This document shows, in pieces, positions 1 to 22,773 of a stretch of 64,000 nt of DNA. The DNA lies in contig CANSHD010000001.1 of the NCBI GenBank assembly GCA_947646585.1, positions 248,617-312,616 of the forward strand, read 5' to 3'. Source of the DNA: an uncultured Alphaproteobacteria bacterium. GTDB lineage: Bacteria > Pseudomonadota > Alphaproteobacteria > Rs-D84. Numbering within the stretch: the stretch's first letter is position 1; each line of letters opens with the position of its first letter. Made by a program: the position numbers and the translations under genes. The notes under the pieces are model-generated. The model searched no databases. It was given only the letters and a program-made list of their open reading frames with translations, and was not told the origin of the DNA.

Positions 1-365
1 TCCAGCGTGCGAACGTTCTGGATAAATTGGGCATCGGCGACGTTGTCCGCGGCCAGGCCCAGACGGTTCTGTTCTTCCGCAATCCGGCGGCGGACGCAAA
101 CGATTACGCGCACTGGAATTTGAATCCGCTGGAAATGGCGTTCATTCAGGGCAAGGCGTATCCGAATTTAAAGCGCGCGGTGTTGCTGTCGCGGCCCGTG
201 ACGGGTGAATCCGTTATTTTGAATACGGAACTGGGGGGCTTGGGCAATCTGCTGCGTCTGTTTGAATCCGGACGCTCGTCGGTGCTGCTGGCCGAAGAGC
301 TATATAAAATGTACGGTACAAATTTCGTATCGGAATATCTAAAACGTCAAGGCGGCGATGTATAA
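1..365 (+). CDS. hypothetical protein, probably 5'-truncated by the window edge (frame open from nt 3; first in-window start is TTG at 27)
   Basis: ORF open to the window start; no recognisable motif; 3' end overlaps the next ORF by 8 nt. Confidence 0.35.
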   Translation, partial: QRANVLDKLGIGDVVRGQAQTVLFFRNPAADANDYAHWNLNPLEMAFIQGKAYPNLKRAVLLSRPVTGESVILNTELGGLGNLLRLFESGRSSVLLAEELYKMYGTNFVSEYLKRQGGDV

Positions 366-975
366 GGCTCTGTTTCTTTGTTTTCTGTGCATGGTGCTGC
401 CGAACGCGGCGCGCGGCGAAGACGACTGCATGGCATATAAAATCCGGCCGCGAATAACGGTGTCCGCCCCGGAATGGACCAAGCAGGTGGTGCAGCCGTT
501 AAAAGAAATGGATTTGCTGCACGGTGACGTGATTGCGACGCTGGTTGACAATTACGACATAACAGGCGACGTCACAGGGATAGAGGACGGATTCTGCGTG
601 TCTTTGAAATCCGTGGCCGCAACCGTCGGGTACAGTGATTTCTTGGTTCAGATTGACATGCGTCATGTACCCGGCACGTGCACATACAATGCCGTTTTAT
701 CGCACGAGGACGAGCATATCCGTGCATACATGTCCATCATCAATGATTTTCAGACGGAACTGCACGATGCGATTTATGCGGCGGCGGATTCGGTAATGCC
801 CGTCTTTGTTCGCAATGAAGAGGATATAGACACCGCACTGGACACGTTGAACAAGAATCTGCAGTCGCACCCCGACGTTATTTTGGTGAAGCAAAAGATT
901 CGCGCGGCCGAGGAAATAAGGAACAAGCGCGTGGATGAAAACGACGACGGCGCGCGTCTGAAGCAGTGCATGTAA
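358..975 (+). CDS. secreted hypothetical protein with HExxH motif (SHEDEH); putative small metallopeptidase-like protein
   Basis: N-terminal hydrophobic signal-like segment MYKALFLCFLCMVLPNAARG; HEDEH motif; 205 aa. Confidence 0.5.
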   Translation: MYKALFLCFLCMVLPNAARGEDDCMAYKIRPRITVSAPEWTKQVVQPLKEMDLLHGDVIATLVDNYDITGDVTGIEDGFCVSLKSVAATVGYSDFLVQIDMRHVPGTCTYNAVLSHEDEHIRAYMSIINDFQTELHDAIYAAADSVMPVFVRNEEDIDTALDTLNKNLQSHPDVILVKQKIRAAEEIRNKRVDENDDGARLKQCM

Positions 976-978
976 TTT

Positions 979-1644
979 TTGCGCATGAAAGACATATTCA
1001 AGAAAGTTTTATTGTGGTTTTTCTCGGTCATAATATGCGGTATTTTGGTTGGCATACTGGGCAACCGGGTATATTACGAATATTTTGAAAAGACAAATCT
1101 GGCATACGCCAGCGAGACTTTCCGCATGGCGTACAAAGACAGCCAGATGCGCAAAAATCTTAAAATCACAATCAACGGCAAAAATGTGAACGAGCTCTAT
1201 ATTACAACCGTGACTTTGGTTAACAATGGAAACGCAACGTTGTCCCGCCCCGATTTCAAGGCCGAGACCGACCCCCTGCGCATAGAGGGCAAGCACATGG
1301 AAAGCGTTTTCGTGGACAAGATAAACACAACCGCAAATTCGCGTATCGCACTGGTAAAGCGCCGCGGCGGCATGCGCGTTAATTTCAAATGGATAAATCC
1401 CGGCGACAAGATTGTGTTAAAGGTCGTGCACCAGCGGCCATCCGACAACATTCGGGTGCGCGGTTCGTTTCACGGCATTTCGCGCATAACGCGAATGGAC
1501 GACGATTACAACAAACTGGCATACACGCGTCGGCACATAATATGTGTCGGCATTGTCACGGCAATCGGCACGATACTGTTGATTGCGGCGGTGATTGGCG
1601 GCGTGCTGTTAATGCACCGCGGCCGGATTTCTAAAACAAAGTAA
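979..1644 (+). CDS. hypothetical membrane protein (N- and C-terminal TM helices)
   Basis: TM segments LLWFFSVIICGILVGILG and IICVGIVTAIGTILLIAAVIGGVLL; 4-nt gap from upstream ORF. Confidence 0.5.
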   Translation: MRMKDIFKKVLLWFFSVIICGILVGILGNRVYYEYFEKTNLAYASETFRMAYKDSQMRKNLKITINGKNVNELYITTVTLVNNGNATLSRPDFKAETDPLRIEGKHMESVFVDKINTTANSRIALVKRRGGMRVNFKWINPGDKIVLKVVHQRPSDNIRVRGSFHGISRITRMDDDYNKLAYTRRHIICVGIVTAIGTILLIAAVIGGVLLMHRGRISKTK

Positions 1645-4624: not shown

Positions 4625-5326
4625 TTAGAGAGATTTTAACATTTCGTCAATGGTTTTCTGCGGCACCTGTCTTATTTGTCCGGGCGCCAGATTTCCAAGC
4701 GTTATCGGCCCAAAGGAAATACGCCGCAAATGATGCACCGACGCGCGGCATGCACGCAGTACAATTCGCACCTCGTTCTTTTTCCCCTCGGTCACGACGA
4801 CGCGCAGATTATTGTCGTCCAAAACGTCAATCTGCATCGGACGGTATTTTACGCCGTCCACCGTAATCCCGCGCCGCGCCGCATCCAGATGGGAAAAATC
4901 GTTCCCGTTGACGGTCGCGATATATGTGCGCGGAATGTGCGACGACGGCAGTGTTAAACGCCGCGCCAGTTCCCCGTCATCGGTCAGAAGCAGCAACCCC
5001 GTCGTCTTGTAATCCAGGCGGCCCACATATTTTAAACCCCTGTATTCCGGCGCCAGACAGTCGTACACCGTTTTACGCCCCGCCGGGTCGCGTACGGTTG
5101 TCATTGTGTTGATGGGTTTATGAAACGCGTACAGGTGTGACGCACTGCGCGGCTTTACGATTTTTCCGTCAATGGAAACGGTGTCAGTTTCGGGATTTAC
5201 AAAGCATACGGGTGTTTGCACAACATTGCCGTTTATTGCCACGCGCCCGGATAAAATCATAGCCTCCGCCTCGCGTCGCGATGCGACGCCGGCGTCTGCG
5301 ATGAATTTTGCGATGCGCAGTGTCAT
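4625..5326 (-). CDS. rRNA pseudouridine synthase, RsuA/RluB family (S4 domain + PseudoU_synth_2)
   Basis: MTLRIAKFIADAGVASRREAEAMILSGRVAING S4-like N-terminus; LYAFHKP..GRLD catalytic Asp region; ATGA overlap with rsmE. Confidence 0.8.
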   Translation of the reverse strand: MTLRIAKFIADAGVASRREAEAMILSGRVAINGNVVQTPVCFVNPETDTVSIDGKIVKPRSASHLYAFHKPINTMTTVRDPAGRKTVYDCLAPEYRGLKYVGRLDYKTTGLLLLTDDGELARRLTLPSSHIPRTYIATVNGNDFSHLDAARRGITVDGVKYRPMQIDVLDDNNLRVVVTEGKKNEVRIVLRACRASVHHLRRISFGPITLGNLAPGQIRQVPQKTIDEMLKSL

Positions 5327-5979
5327 TTCATGCCAATCCTTGAAATTGCGACGACGGCGGCAACCTCGGCCCGCAGGATTGTCGCCCCCAGTGATATTCC
5401 GCGCGCCCCGGCCGCGTCCAGTGCGGCGAATTCGTCGTCTGAAAATCCGCCCTCCGGCCCGATTAAGACGGATTTTGCCGAGACGCTGCCATTGACATTG
5501 CCGCCGTGCGCGGCGCGCTCGTCTGCGAATACAACGCCCGACAAATCCAAATCTGAAAACTTTATCACGGGCATTATTTCCGGCACGCTGTTGCGGTTGG
5601 ACTGCTCGGCCGCCTCAGCCGCGATTTTACGCATCCGGTCCCAGTTTATATGCGCCGCGTTTGTGCGTGCGGTGATTACGGGCTGAAAACGTGCGACGCC
5701 CATCTGGGTCGCCATGTTGATTAAATCGTCCGTGCGCTTTATCGGTGCAAACATCAGTGTTATGTCACCGGCCGGGTCGGCGTGCGCGGTTTTTTCGCCG
5801 ATTGTAATGCTTTTCCCGTCGGGTGACAGATGCGCCGCAAATTCCACCCCGCTGTTAAATACCAGAAAATCGTTCGTGCGCATGACGCGCGTCAAATAAT
5901 GCGCCGTGTCGCGCGGTGCCGGAATAATATCGCCGGATTTTATAGGGGTATTTATAAAAATGCGCGGAATGTTTTTCAT
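5323..5979 (-). CDS. rsmE: 16S rRNA (uracil1498-N3)-methyltransferase RsmE
   Basis: MKNIPRIFI.. N-terminus typical of RsmE; C-terminal ..ISLGATILRAEVAAVVAIS SPOUT motif; start taken at the internal MKNIPRIF (ORF extends to 6012). Confidence 0.8.
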   Translation of the reverse strand: MKNIPRIFINTPIKSGDIIPAPRDTAHYLTRVMRTNDFLVFNSGVEFAAHLSPDGKSITIGEKTAHADPAGDITLMFAPIKRTDDLINMATQMGVARFQPVITARTNAAHINWDRMRKIAAEAAEQSNRNSVPEIMPVIKFSDLDLSGVVFADERAAHGGNVNGSVSAKSVLIGPEGGFSDDEFAALDAAGARGISLGATILRAEVAAVVAISRIGMK

Positions 5980-6011
5980 TTTATGTTTTTTTCTGATATA
6001 ATCATAACACA

Positions 6012-8210
6012 ATGGCAGAGAAGTTCAAGATTTTATCGGCCGGCGGTTCGTCCAAGGGCCTCAATATTTTCAAGTCCAGCGCCTATAAAGAGCACGAGCG
6101 TAAACCGTTCGCGTCACTGTTCTGGTCGTTGCGCTGGGCGATTGGAATATGGCTGGCGTGCGCGCTGGCGTTCGGATTATCGTTTATTGCCGAGCATTTC
6201 TGGCGGTACGGTTTTTCGCCCGCGTCTTGGCGCTGGATGTGGATATATTTAGGTAATGCGGCATCGACATTGGGGCTGTCGGTGGTGGCGGAAATTCCTG
6301 CATGGATTACGCGTTGCGTTGCGCGGCCCGACATGGCGTGTATGGCGCCGCTGTTGCCGGTGGTGGCGTACTTTTTCCTGGCCGATGCGACATTGGTCAA
6401 AGAATTTAATCCGTACGGCAACGACAAATTTGCAGAAAAATCTTCAAACAAGGCCACAAAAGAAGACATTGAAAAAATGGGCCTGCTTAACGGATTTATG
6501 ATGGTGCTGGGGTACTTTAAGAAAAAGCCGTTGATGATGGACGAATGCCTGTCGGCGTTGTGCGTGGCGCCTCCCGGGACCGGTAAGACCCAGGGTGTCG
6601 TTCTGCCGACAATTTTCGACTGTCCCCAGGTGTCGATGATTATCAACGACCCGAAACCGGAATTAAAGCAGAAATCCAGCGCATACCGCGCGACCATCGG
6701 GCCGGTGTTCATTATGAACTGGGCGGGCCAGGACGACCCGGAAAGGGGTATTTATTATCCGTCTTGGAATCCGCTGTCGCCCGAGCACGTACCCTTTAAT
6801 ACCGAGCAGCGCGATTTGTATATCGATTCCATCTGCAATGTTTTGGTTGCGGAAAAGGCGTCGTCGTCCGCGGACCCGCACTGGACGATATCCGGTCGTG
6901 CGGCGCTGTCCGGATTGATTCAGTTTATCGTGTCCAAGGTGGAGCGCGCCAAGGCCGACGACTATTTTTACTCGCGCATTGCCAGCGGCACGTTTGACGC
7001 CGAAGATGCGGCCGTTTTGTCGGATTATTATCTGTCGATGATAAACGACCCGAACGCCTATGCGGCCAGTGCGATTTTACAGCGCGGCGAATTGAACGCG
7101 ATGAACTATGTCCATATCGGAACATGGGAAAACATACCCGACGCATGGAAGGGCAAAGAAGCGTCGCTGTCGATGATTCTGGACTGGCTGAACGCGTCCC
7201 AGATTGCGATTGCCCAGGACCTTGAAAACCGCCGCCGCCAGGGCGACCAGATGGTAATGATGGCGGACCCGATGAAGGACTTGTTCCTGGGCGCGGTTGA
7301 AGAGGCGCGCCGTTATGCATATGCGCATCGTGCGATTCTGGAATTGACCCAGCTGGCCAACACCCCGGACAAGGAACGCGGCAGTATCCTGTCAACCGTG
7401 ATGGCGGGCCTGTCGATATTCCGTAATGCGGCGGTGCGGAACCGGACCAGCCATTCGGACTTCCATTTCTCTGACATGCGCGGCCTGCGCGACCCGCGCG
7501 ACGGCAAGATTAAGCCGGTCACGGTATATCTCTCAATCAACATGGTTGATGCCGAGGCATTGAATCCGATTACCGGAATATTTATAGAATTGATGTCGTC
7601 ATACCTGCTGGCCAACGCGCCCGAGGGCGTGCGCGACGGCCAGAAACTGGGGCCGTATCCTGTACTGTTCCTGTTGGACGAAATGCCGAAAATGCAAAAG
7701 CTGCAGGCGGTGATTCAGGGACCGGACCTGGGACGCGGACAAAAGATATCGTACCTGATTATCGGCCAGGATATTCACCAGATTGCGGAAAAATACGGCC
7801 AGGACGCGGCGGCGACGATTATATCCACAACCGCGGCAAAAATTGTTCTGCGCCAGAACGACCCGGACACTGCAAAGCGCTTTTCCGACATGATGGGTTA
7901 CAAGATGAAGATAAAGACGGACAAGGACGGCAAGGAATCCACCGGCGAGGAATTGCTGTACACGCCGATGGATATTATGAAGCTGGACAAGAAAAAGCAG
8001 CTGGTCATATTCCAGGGGTATTACAACCGCCCGATTGAGGCCGACCACCAGGAAGCATGGCAGGACCCGCGTTTGTCGGGATACATGGCGATGGGCGAAT
8101 CGTCGCCGCTGCCGGAATTTTTAATACCGTCGCACCATGCGGCCATGGGGTACGGCGGCGCGCCGCGCATATATAATCCCCAAACGCACGAGGTTAAGAT
8201 TTTGGCATAA
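6012..8210 (+). CDS. virD4: type IV secretion coupling protein, VirD4/TraG/TraD family ATPase
   Basis: N-terminal TM helices; Walker A VAPPGTGKTQGVVLPT; Walker B-like VLFLLDEMPKM; conserved IIGQDIHQI..TAAKIVLRQND region; 732 aa. Confidence 0.8.
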   Translation: MAEKFKILSAGGSSKGLNIFKSSAYKEHERKPFASLFWSLRWAIGIWLACALAFGLSFIAEHFWRYGFSPASWRWMWIYLGNAASTLGLSVVAEIPAWITRCVARPDMACMAPLLPVVAYFFLADATLVKEFNPYGNDKFAEKSSNKATKEDIEKMGLLNGFMMVLGYFKKKPLMMDECLSALCVAPPGTGKTQGVVLPTIFDCPQVSMIINDPKPELKQKSSAYRATIGPVFIMNWAGQDDPERGIYYPSWNPLSPEHVPFNTEQRDLYIDSICNVLVAEKASSSADPHWTISGRAALSGLIQFIVSKVERAKADDYFYSRIASGTFDAEDAAVLSDYYLSMINDPNAYAASAILQRGELNAMNYVHIGTWENIPDAWKGKEASLSMILDWLNASQIAIAQDLENRRRQGDQMVMMADPMKDLFLGAVEEARRYAYAHRAILELTQLANTPDKERGSILSTVMAGLSIFRNAAVRNRTSHSDFHFSDMRGLRDPRDGKIKPVTVYLSINMVDAEALNPITGIFIELMSSYLLANAPEGVRDGQKLGPYPVLFLLDEMPKMQKLQAVIQGPDLGRGQKISYLIIGQDIHQIAEKYGQDAAATIISTTAAKIVLRQNDPDTAKRFSDMMGYKMKIKTDKDGKESTGEELLYTPMDIMKLDKKKQLVIFQGYYNRPIEADHQEAWQDPRLSGYMAMGESSPLPEFLIPSHHAAMGYGGAPRIYNPQTHEVKILA

Positions 8211-8240
8211 AAAACACCGGGTTTTCCCGGTGTTTTTATG
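8209..8240. terminator. bidirectional rho-independent terminator (virD4 / ybaB)
   Basis: aaaacaccgggttttcccggtgttttt. Confidence 0.8.
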
Positions 8241-15536: not shown

Positions 15537-16922
15537 ATGTCACAGATAAAGAAAGTTTTAATCGCGAACCGCGGGGAAATCGCCCTGCGCATAATTCGCG
15601 CATGCCGCGACATGGGCATACGAACCGTCGCGGTGTATTCGACCGTTGATAAAAACGCAATGCATGTGCAGTTGGCCGATGAATCGGTATGCATCGGGCC
15701 GGGCCCGTCGCGCGATTCTTATTTGAATGAATCGGCGATTTTGACGGCGGCGCTGCTGACCAACGCAGACGCGATTCATCCCGGATACGGATTTTTGTCG
15801 GAGCGTGCGGACTTTGCGCGCAAGGTGGCCCTGCACGGCTTGATTTGGATTGGGCCCGACGCCGACATGATTGAACGCATGGGCGACAAGGTTAATGCAA
15901 AGCGCACGGCGATTGAATGCGGCCTGCCGGTGGTGCCGGGCTCCGACGGGGCGGTGGATTCTTTGGAATCCGCACTGGCGTGGGGCGAAAAAATCGGATA
16001 TCCGGTAATGCTCAAGGCCTCTGCCGGCGGCGGCGGTCGCGGTATGCGCCCCGTTCACAATGCAGACGAGATGGCAGAGGCTTTCCAGATTACAAAACAG
16101 GAGGCGAAATCCGGCTTTGGCGATGACACGCTGTATATGGAAAAGCTGTTGCTGCATCCGCGCCACATTGAATTTCAGGTACTGGGGGACAAACACGGCA
16201 ACGTTGTGATTTTTGGCGAGCGCGACTGTTCGCTGCAGCGTAAAAACCAAAAGGTTATGGAGGAATGTCCGGCCGCGGCACTGACACAAAAACAGCGCGA
16301 CGACATGATAGAGGTCTGCAAAACGGCGGCGAAAAAGATGGGATACACCAACGCCGGCACGTTTGAGTTCATGTTTGAGGATGGAAAATTCTATTTCCTG
16401 GAAATGAACACGCGTCTTCAGGTGGAACACCCCGTGACCGAAATGGTTTACGGCGTTGATTTGGTGCGCGAGCAGATTCGCGTTGCGGCGGGCGAAAAGC
16501 TGGGCTATACCCAGTCGAACGTTGTTCCGCACGGTCATGCGATTGAATTCCGCATCAATGCCGAAGACCCCGACAACTTTACGCCGAACCCGGGCAAGAT
16601 AACGCTGTACGCGCCATCGGGTGGCCTTGGCGTGCGTGTGGACAGTGCGGTTTACACCGGATACACAATTCCGCCGACATATGATTCCATGATTGCGAAA
16701 CTGATTGTTCATGCACAGTCCCGTCCGGCATGCATCATGCGTGCCCAGCGTGCGTTGGACGAATTCGTGATAGAGGGGGTCAAAACAACAATCCCTCTGC
16801 AGCGCAGATTGCTTAACAACGGCGATGTTCGGAAATTGAAATTTGACAACCACTGGCTGGAAGAATATTTGAAATCGGACGCCGCGAAAAAAGATGCCGA
16901 GGTAAAATCGGACGAAGAATAA
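15537..16922 (+). CDS. accC: acetyl-CoA carboxylase biotin carboxylase subunit
   Basis: [28 protein letters not shown]; ATP-grasp motifs; 461 aa. Confidence 0.95.
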
Positions 16923-16943
16923 AAAAACACCGACAATAACCAC

Positions 16944-16980
16944 CCGCAAAAATATTTATTTTTGCGGGGTTCTATTTTAC
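16944..16980 (+). terminator. rho-independent terminator after accC
   Basis: cccgcaaaaatatttatttttgcggg + T-rich tail. Confidence 0.75.
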
Positions 16981-22236: not shown

Positions 22237-22268
22237 AAAACGGCGGATATTCCGCCGTTTTTATTTTA
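22237..22268. terminator. bidirectional terminator (macB permease / Cys-rich gene)
   Basis: aaaaaacggcggatattccgccgtttttatttt. Confidence 0.8.
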
Positions 22269-22773
22269 CATAATGACATTTGTCGGTGTATGTAAATCTG
22301 CCCCCGGCGTCTGTCCCGGTTGTCCCCGCCGGCAGATAGCATTCCGTTATTGATGCCGCGCCGGTTGAATCCGTCGTGCCGGCAACGCCGCCGGATCTCG
22401 GGCACGCGGTGCATGATGCGGCCGCGGCGGCATTGTTATATCTCCCCTGGGCGCATGGCTTGCATGACGTCAATGTGTTGTCCGCCGCCGAATAGTACCC
22501 CGCCCCGCACGCATTGCACGTGCATGTGGATGTATTGCCGCTGGATTTGTATCCGGCATTGCATTTGCATCGATATGATGTTGTCGCGGTCGGACAGCAG
22601 AGTGTCGTGGTGTTGATGCCGTCGCATTTGGGGCAGTGTTTTGATTGGCGCACGCCGTTGCTGATTGGGCTCCACATATCCATCCAGTCGTTGTTAAGTG
22701 CCGCCAATGCCGGGCATGCGTTCGGCCACGCCGCCGCGCCGATACATATGCATGTGATGATTGATTTTCTCAT
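22261..22773 (-). CDS. secreted cysteine-rich repeat protein (ephrin-receptor-like / GCC2_GCC3-like CxxCxxGxY...CxxCP units); paralog of 47228-47835
   Basis: signal peptide; ~20 Cys; C-terminal block CTACPRSGG..ITECYLPAGT..FTYTDKCHYVK aligns with CTRCPSSGG..ITSCYIPSGT..TYTGDCYYKN of 47557 ORF. Confidence 0.6.
   Translation of the reverse strand: MRKSIITCICIGAAAWPNACPALAALNNDWMDMWSPISNGVRQSKHCPKCDGINTTTLCCPTATTSYRCKCNAGYKSSGNTSTCTCNACGAGYYSAADNTLTSCKPCAQGRYNNAAAAASCTACPRSGGVAGTTDSTGAASITECYLPAGTTGTDAGGRFTYTDKCHYVK

Follow-up and report, generated by a model that had tools for sequence, protein, structure and literature searches.

A VirD4/TraG-family coupling protein and a virB3-virB4 operon, probable parts of one dispersed secretion system in Candidatus Enterousia

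The coupling protein gene and its product

We examined a stretch of 64,000 nucleotides (nt) from an uncultured alphaproteobacterium (assembly GCA_947646585.1, contig CANSHD010000001.1, positions 248,617 to 312,616 of the forward strand), referred to here as the window. Near its left end, an open reading frame (ORF) of 732 amino acids (aa) encodes a type IV coupling protein (T4CP), the coupling ATPase of a type IV secretion system (T4SS). An earlier note, made from the sequence alone, had placed here a T4SS coupling protein with transmembrane (TM) helices, Walker A and Walker B motifs and its own terminator, flanked by rsmE and by ybaB-pnp. Each of these statements is borne out. The rsmE gene lies upstream and is divergent, ybaB-pnp lies downstream and is convergent, and a G+C-rich hairpin followed by a T-run separates the T4CP gene from ybaB. 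The note had also called the gene stand-alone, with no VirB or Tra component within 64 kb. This does not hold, as the window opens inside the 3' end of a virB4 gene, whose operon continues to position 1644. The features are collected in Table 1.

Table 1. Features of the coupling protein gene and of the operon at the left edge of the window.
Feature	Position	Strand	Evidence
virB4 3' end (last 120 codons and stop)	1..365	+	tblastn and hidden Markov model (HMM) searches against VirB4 seeds; 100% aa identity to the VirB4 C-terminus of locus L090
orf205, signal-peptide protein with invariant HExxH and 4 invariant Cys	358..975	+	conservation across genomes
orf219, hydrophobic segments at both ends, last operon gene	988..1644	+	gene order; limited to close relatives
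Promoter-like site TTTTCA, 18-nt spacer, TGnTATAAT, just 5' of the T4CP start	5973..6002	+	consensus scan
T4CP (VirD4/TraG-family coupling ATPase), 732 aa	6012..8210	+	Pfam, AlphaFold2 (AF2), Foldseek, conservation, ratio of nonsynonymous to synonymous substitution rates (dN/dS)
T4CP N-terminal membrane anchor: hydrophobic aa 34-64 and 106-130, loop of about 40 residues between	6111..6401	+	hydropathy; AF2 helices 31-66, 108-123
T4CP Walker A APPGTGKT, aa 186-193	6567..6590	+	invariant in 81 orthologs
T4CP all-alpha domain within the ATPase core, about aa 289-480	6876..7451	+	PF10412 TrwB_AAD_bind match; AF2 helices only, aa 289-478
T4CP Walker B LLDE, aa 554-557	7671..7682	+	conserved in orthologs
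Bidirectional intrinsic-terminator-like hairpin between convergent T4CP and ybaB	8210..8237	.	12-bp stem, 6 G-C pairs, A/T runs on both sides

The product of the ORF is a genuine T4CP of the VirD4/TraG family. Three Pfam families match it above their gathering scores. These are PF02534 (T4SS-DNA_transf; 1.7e-48, 166 bits against a gathering score of 20.1), PF12696 (TraG-D_C; 2.1e-19, 70 bits against 22) and PF10412 (TrwB_AAD_bind; 6.3e-18, 65 bits against 20.5). Residues K192 and D556 are invariant across 39 diverse members of the clade (relatives at 22-94%). The two N-terminal helices form the membrane anchor that marks a T4CP, as predicted from hydropathy and the AF2 model. NCBI already carries an automatic annotation for this protein as a 'type IV secretory system conjugative DNA transfer family protein'.

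A sequence search of the Protein Data Bank (PDB) with phmmer gave no match at E<1e-3, so the T4CP had to be compared by fold. An AF2 model was derived from an alignment of the 39 diverse clade members (predicted local distance difference test score, pLDDT, 83.6; predicted TM-score, pTM, 0.73). The top Foldseek matches of this model are Cagbeta (8DOL, E 5e-19) and TrwB (E about 1e-13, target TM-score 0.72-0.75). HerA, DotL and VirB4 reach merely 1e-6 to 1e-7, and the HerA complexes have TM-scores of 0.3-0.4. Cagbeta and TrwB thus outrank HerA by 6-12 orders of magnitude, and FtsK is absent from the 50 best matches. With TrwB of R388 and Cagbeta of H. pylori the protein shares a RecA-like nucleotide-binding domain carrying an inserted all-alpha domain (target TM-score 0.65-0.75). 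It differs from them in sequence, with 13-15% identity, and in the size of the all-alpha domain, which is larger here at about 190 residues.

These results bear on whether the ORF could be a mis-assigned ATPase of FtsK/HerA or defense type. The empty PDB sequence search and the failure to reach any curated T4CP subfamily cutoff (see below) are what such a protein might give. However, the Pfam scores lie well over their thresholds, Cagbeta and TrwB are far ahead of HerA, and T4CPs typically have an all-alpha domain and a two-TM anchor such as those seen here. The Pfam scores and the fold search together refute the mis-assignment, which we consider extremely improbable. The earlier note had named a grouping with FtsK or other ATPases as the outcome that would count against its assignment, and the fold search gave the opposite.

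The AF2 model predicts a folded C-terminus (aa 686-732), and the sequence of this part is not acidic. A recognition tail of the DotL/TraD kind is thus not obvious; the note had suggested looking for a C-terminal tail that recognizes effectors.

The start of the gene is close to that of rsmE. The rsmE ORF spans 5323-6012 on the minus strand, and its start is most likely the ATG at 5978 rather than the TTG at 6012, so that 33 nt of intergenic DNA precede the T4CP gene. The promoter-like site in this region matches the consensus at 10 of 12 positions and has an extended -10 element, as a pattern match only.

Conservation in Candidatus Enterousia

With one genome scanned for each GTDB species, 299 relatives of the T4CP were found, the best 80 of which were taken as the locus set. 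These 80 proteins are full-length, with 72-94% aa identity, and all of them come from gut metagenome-assembled genomes, which bear the names Candidatus Enterousia, uncultured Alphaproteobacteria or Rickettsiales. Some of the chromosomes are closed, among them those of 716,531 and 958,618 bp. The host is Candidatus Enterousia, an uncultured gut alphaproteobacterium of the order Rs-D84. Enterousia belongs to this order in GTDB, and its genomes are smaller than 1 Mb (PMC12306168). Members of Rs-D84 are without respiration, have an incomplete glycolysis and lack amino-acid, nucleotide and lipid biosynthesis, and they are predicted to live as obligate symbionts or parasites (PMC12306168). As for the interface with a partner, this survey mentions only 'hypothetical membrane-bound proteins' (PMC12306168). 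In a homolog search with the T4CP, the matches listed (at least 120) were all from within the genus and gave no outgroup information.

The T4CP is under purifying selection at the level of housekeeping genes and is not a relic. All 81 copies of the gene (the window and the 80 loci) are intact, and the catalytic motifs do not vary among them. Comparison with the four closest species gives a dN/dS of 0.04-0.07 at a dS of 0.8-1.0, as against 0.04-0.06 for pnp, 0.03 for ychF and 0.12-0.15 for the neighboring rluX. Across the genus its identity of 72-94% compares with about 55-70% for rsmE, rluX and the TPR gene. The GC content is host-like and matches the surroundings, and no integrase, repeat or tRNA boundary adjoins the gene.

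Decay of a conjugative element had been offered in the earlier note as one origin of such an orphan; an integrative and conjugative element is included here. The nearest annotated relatives are T4CPs of conjugative megaplasmids with a MobA/MobL relaxase, and the sampled DNA yielded no relaxase, which would suit a remnant of this kind. Against it stand the intact copies, the invariant motifs and the low dN/dS, together with a flank fixed across at least 80 species, host-like GC and the lack of any mobile-element boundary. The conservation data refute this origin, and we rate its probability as negligible. The note was correct that the 64-kb window holds no relaxase; none was found there.

The position of the gene is as stable as its sequence. 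The block TPR-rluX-rsmE<->T4CP is retained in every locus (80/80) despite heavy rearrangement elsewhere, with divergent rsmE as the upstream neighbor throughout. The downstream side varies and is always housekeeping, for example infB, nusA, lptFG, lptD, lpxD, dnaX or der. In the 80 loci, the 10 kb to each side of the T4CP gene hold none of VirB8-11. Within the window itself, a Pfam search of all sizeable ORFs showed housekeeping genes and a few unknowns only.

In 17 of the 80 loci, and in an outgroup with 71% identity, the T4CP gene is followed by a lipoprotein of 393-429 aa without a family match and then by LpoB. The pair is on the same strand as the T4CP gene after a gap of 3 to about 80 nt (L013 12204-14258; L165 5159-6963), and the LpoB-like gene passes the TIGR02722 equivalog cutoff. 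The order T4CP-lipoprotein-LpoB is probably ancestral and was lost in the genome of the window, where ybaB-pnp comes next. We considered the pair as outer-membrane parts of a T4SS and rejected this, as neither gene has similarity to a VirB profile and the second is LpoB. Another candidate companion, 'hyp463' (15558-16949, minus strand), is the antisense shadow of accC (15537-16922, plus strand). In tblastn this antisense ORF still showed an 'identity' of 43-66% from genome to genome.

Gene order differs extremely from one Enterousia species to another. Blocks of 3-8 genes are reshuffled and inverted, while content and sequences are conserved, unlike the frozen synteny of many long-term endosymbionts.

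The virB3-virB4 operon and its ancestry

We used the VirB proteins of megaplasmids from Erythrobacter aureus, Sphingosinicella and Microvirga as seeds against the Enterousia loci and the window. The megaplasmid VirB4 gave a full-length tblastn match in the Enterousia locus L003 (31% over 800 aa, 4e-123), and the same seeds matched the window at 3-344. The contig of L090 aligns with the window at 96.9% nt identity and shows the whole arrangement: ABC-F, virB3-virB4-orf205-orf219, sufBD-like, ychF, TPR, rluX, rsmE, T4CP. Window positions 3-362 encode the last 120 residues of VirB4, identical to those of the 805-aa VirB4 of L090. The virB4 start lies about 2.06 kb to the left of the window, preceded by virB3. 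The 98-aa VirB3 matches PF05101 (25.7 bits, gathering score 23.9), and the 805-aa VirB4 matches PF27097 and PF03135, with 357 bits for TIGR00929, which is under its cutoff of 643. The 120-residue tail alone has no Pfam match. It is thus unrecognizable in the window without related sequences, which explains why it was missed earlier.

Relative to the T4CP gene, virB4 ends 5.6 kb upstream (at 365) and the last gene of the operon 4.4 kb upstream (at 1644). The operon and the T4CP gene share one contig in L090-92, in L003 and in the window. This closeness is specific to the window species and L003; in most Enterousia the T4CP gene and virB4 are more than 10 kb apart. VirB4 itself, 60-93% identical, was found in 65 metagenome loci; it is complete wherever the contig is long enough, and its Walker A motif is conserved in all 55 full-length copies. 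The module of sufBD-like gene, virB3, virB4 and orf205 is universal in the Enterousia VirB4 loci examined.

The start of orf205 overlaps the virB4 stop by 8 nt, and orf205 follows virB4 in every genome examined. It has no Pfam or NCBIfam match and no hhalign similarity to VirB2-11, and its single-sequence structure model (pLDDT 37) was unusable. It is probably the HExxH protein that the earlier note took for a translocated effector. Since it is co-operonic with virB4 and has a signal peptide, a periplasmic or secreted accessory protein seems likelier than an effector recruited by the T4CP. Some genomes have a tandem paralog of orf205, for example at L131 13018-13692. The last gene, orf219, has no Pfam match, and hhalign against the VirB2-11 families was likewise empty.

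The ancestry of the T4CP and of VirB4 was followed through their relatives (Table 2). The two proteins have identical ranked nearest relatives, all of them in complete VirB...B11-T4CP operons. This agreement points to common descent from one system that is now fragmented. In a neighbor-joining tree of T4CPs (645 columns, 100 bootstraps), Enterousia and three detached T4CPs (P0121, P0123, P0124) form one clade with 99% support. This clade is sister to the T4SS-linked L161 and L163 (67%), and the plasmid T4CPs join next (93%). The simplest reading of these sequence relationships is that T4CP and VirB4 descend from one ancestral VirB/D4 system, the genes of which were separated by rearrangement.

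Table 2. Identity of the nearest T4SS-linked relatives to the Enterousia proteins.
Relative	Arrangement	T4CP	VirB4
L161	operon VirB4...B8-B9-secretin-like-B10-B11-T4CP	40-49%	45%
L163	chromosomal island	37%	36%
Erythrobacter, Microvirga and Sphingosinicella	megaplasmids	30-31%	32%

By descent, L161 and L163 are the closest T4SS-linked relatives, and L163 is also chromosomal, being flanked by lon, gyrB and ccmF. They differ from Enterousia in keeping virB8-virB9-(secretin-like)-virB10-virB11-T4CP together. Their VirB11 relatives are labeled Holosporales, Dongiaceae and Telmatospirillum. A secretin homolog adjoins virB9 in L163 (13410-14741, minus strand; PF00263), and another lies between virB9 and virB10 in L161 (6011-7264, plus strand), matching the L163 gene at 6.5e-14. 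A secretin within a virB cluster is unusual. Among annotated proteins, the best matches for both T4CP and VirB4 are on sphingomonad and Microvirga megaplasmids (for example WP_115418087.1 of Erythrobacter aureus), and these have the same domain layout. The megaplasmids carry complete MobA/MobL-VirB2-B3-B4-B5-B6-B8-B9-B10-B11-T4CP-TopoIII-primase regions, whereas the Enterousia genes are chromosomal and fragmented, with no relaxase nearby.

The region 3' of orf205 is variable between genomes. It holds serine recombinases, DNA methyltransferases, rhamnose-biosynthesis (rfb) genes, a 1584-aa protein or a 677-aa Cys-rich protein (L145 13052-21366; L131 14117-18871; L119 13219-18459; L129 13066-18928). 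We considered the unmatched DNA here as a source of T4SS parts; it proved to be variable cargo instead. In a genome that is minimal elsewhere, this site may be a hot spot of integration. The window also encodes a 170-aa protein with a Cys-rich ephrin-receptor-like repeat (22261-22773, minus strand; PF07699, 9e-09), probably the 'Cys-rich protein' that the earlier note had listed among possible effectors. A larger Cys-rich relative lies at L129 16895-18928.

A probable dispersed system and its alternatives

The T4CP is probably a functional coupling protein of a fragmented, chromosomal and vertically inherited VirB/D4-type system in Candidatus Enterousia. The scattering of T4SS genes that the earlier note had envisaged fits this, with virB3-virB4 on the same chromosome, conserved and of common ancestry with the T4CP. 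Genome rearrangement would have dispersed the genes of one VirB/VirD4-type system. By analogy with VirD4/TrwB-type proteins, the T4CP would form a hexamer in the inner membrane, bind substrates in the cytoplasm and pass them to a channel energized by VirB4. Such a system would most likely deliver proteins (or DNA) into a partner cell or exchange them with it. Since most biosynthesis has been lost in the host and a dependence on a partner is predicted, delivery to that partner appears the most plausible use.

Several results weigh against a fragmented VirB/D4-type system. The first is the lack of other components. VirB HMMs from five operons were run against all ORFs of at least 60 aa in 149 Enterousia loci (2.7 Mb), and only the T4CP, VirB4 and VirB3 were genuine matches. 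VirB2, VirB5, VirB6, VirB8, VirB9, VirB10, VirB11 and a relaxase were found neither in this way nor by phmmer with seeds from L161 and L163. The recurrent gene families in the 149 loci, however, number only about 116, or some 14% of the roughly 850 Enterousia genes, so that this absence is weak evidence. Of the virB2-virB11 homologs for which the earlier note had proposed to search, virB3 and virB4 were found. A database-wide search with the VirB11 of L161 gave no Enterousia-like matches; a control with an L161 VirB4 fragment missed the known Enterousia VirB4s as well. Such a word-indexed homolog search misses orthologs of 45% identity with a 245-aa fragment as query, and its negatives do not amount to absence.

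Secondly, the T4CP falls below the cutoff of every curated NCBIfam subfamily. The best, CD1115, gives 137.6 bits against a cutoff of 250. The VirD4 equivalogs PRK13897 and PRK13850 give 95.6 bits against 728 and 60.3 against 681. The models of IncP/Ti TraG, F TraD, SXT TraD and Bacteroides MobC score far below CD1115, and none is reached. The outgroup members of the clade do not reach the curated T4CP cutoffs either, and VirB4 is also far under every curated subfamily cutoff. With the Pfam T4CP families matched and all named cutoffs missed, the T4CP lies outside the named subfamilies. Thirdly, co-regulation is not evident, given that more than 10 kb separates the T4CP gene from virB4 in most species. 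Fourthly, the genome survey of Rs-D84 does not mention a T4SS (PMC12306168). Finally, the existence of related orphan T4CPs leaves room for a role independent of a T4SS.

These orphans occur in other alphaproteobacteria. In uncultured members, directly 5' of outgroup orphan T4CPs that are 31-40% identical to the window T4CP, is a homologous pentapeptide-repeat protein of about 400-413 aa, at a gap of at most 13 nt or overlapping (L083 8772-10001; L084 4227-5429; L085 8747-9988). The pairs stand among housekeeping genes with no VirB within 10 kb, and make up a recurrent two-gene module of which we found no description. A pentapeptide-repeat partner was also considered for the window T4CP and discarded, being absent beside the Enterousia gene; the T4CPs that have one belong to separate clades of the neighbor-joining tree.

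The protein could be a membrane-anchored translocase with the T4CP fold that has been recruited elsewhere, for example to DNA handling at the membrane, and that needs no channel. The Enterousia clade and at least two other related T4CP clades stand alone among housekeeping genes, and the three outgroup loci, from two clades of the tree, pair the T4CP with the pentapeptide-repeat protein and not with VirB genes. The folded C-terminus without an acidic disordered tail would agree with this. Yet the same genomes have kept virB3-virB4, which is as well conserved as the T4CP and has a common ancestry with it. Moreover, no alternative conserved partner lies beside the gene, the lipoprotein and LpoB being envelope housekeeping present in 17 of the 80 loci. 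We therefore hold a role without a T4SS to be improbable.

Another arrangement is suggested by pilus genes. Enterousia has a type IVb-pilus-like module (L090 321-1583, minus strand; L075 16660-21368 and L100 17385-22092, plus strand), which in many genomes lies at a distance of 2-9 kb from virB3-virB4. It encodes a PilO-like protein (PF06864), a second protein of some 230 aa, a GspE/PilB-like ATPase of 545 aa and a platform protein resembling GspF/PilC. ORFs whose N-termini resemble those of type IV pilins are found at L061 3752-4216, L027 4410-5645 and L040 443-1804. Weak 'VirB11' matches by tblastn and HMM in L067, L069, L075 and others proved to be the 545-aa pilus ATPase. No secretin was seen beside the module or in the Enterousia loci. 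In the survey of Rs-D84, type IV pili are reported solely for another lineage (PMC12306168).

A reduced or hybrid machine could have kept an inner-membrane core of VirB3-VirB4 and VirD4, lost the canonical VirB6-11, and might work with orf205, orf219 and/or the type IVb pilus machinery. In its favor, VirB6, VirB8, VirB9, VirB10 and VirB11 were not found in any sampled Enterousia locus, orf205 is invariably coupled to virB4, and the PilO-PilP-GspE/PilB-like ATPase-GspF-like module and the pilin-like ORFs are conserved close to virB4 in many genomes. The closest complete relatives, L161 and L163, also carry a secretin homolog inside the virB cluster. On the other hand, the absence of these VirB proteins was judged from about 14% of the gene complement, the Enterousia loci show no secretin, and orf205 and orf219 are without profile similarity to any VirB family. 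With a genome size of about 0.8 Mb, the pilus genes may also lie close by chance. Such a machine seems possible but rather unlikely. In its more specific form, for Enterousia and its relatives, a type IVb pilus or secretin-type conduit would replace the outer-membrane complex of VirB7/9/10, and a hybrid of T4SS and type IV pilus would exchange material with a partner cell; this we consider doubtful.

A fragmented VirB/D4-type system, as favored above, has a close parallel in function and genome organization. In the Rickettsiales vir homolog (rvh) T4SS, the vir genes lie in several conserved islets around the reduced chromosome, among housekeeping genes and under purifying selection (PMC2653234). 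Both systems are chromosomal, of VirB/D4 type and dispersed in a reduced alphaproteobacterial genome. They differ in that the virD4 of Rickettsia is arrayed with virB8-virB11 (PMC2653234), whereas the Enterousia T4CP is alone beside rsmE, and in that only VirB3, VirB4 and VirD4 have been found so far in Enterousia. This comparison is one of gene arrangement and of the NCBIfam VirD4 models. An rvh-type VirD4, one of the assignments raised by the earlier note, is not supported, given the missed NCBIfam cutoffs and the lack of an array with virB8-virB11.

The T4SS genes of Enterousia are not a new kind of system. What is new here is the core-gene status of the T4CP, its link to virB3-virB4 and the implication for the biology of Enterousia, of which we found no prior description. 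In the literature searched, which did not extend to a 2023 paper on Enterousia, no secretion system is described for Enterousia or Rs-D84.

Enterousia is a widespread uncultured gut lineage of humans, ruminants, horses and poultry that is predicted to live off a partner cell. The T4CP and VirB3-VirB4 as core genes, their common VirB/D4 descent and the nearby type IVb pilus module present a testable candidate for the interface with this partner. They also add, from outside the Rickettsiales, to the examples of reduced alphaproteobacterial genomes in which a T4SS is fragmented and fixed in the chromosome. If the canonical outer-membrane core were truly missing from whole genomes, the interest of the system would rise.

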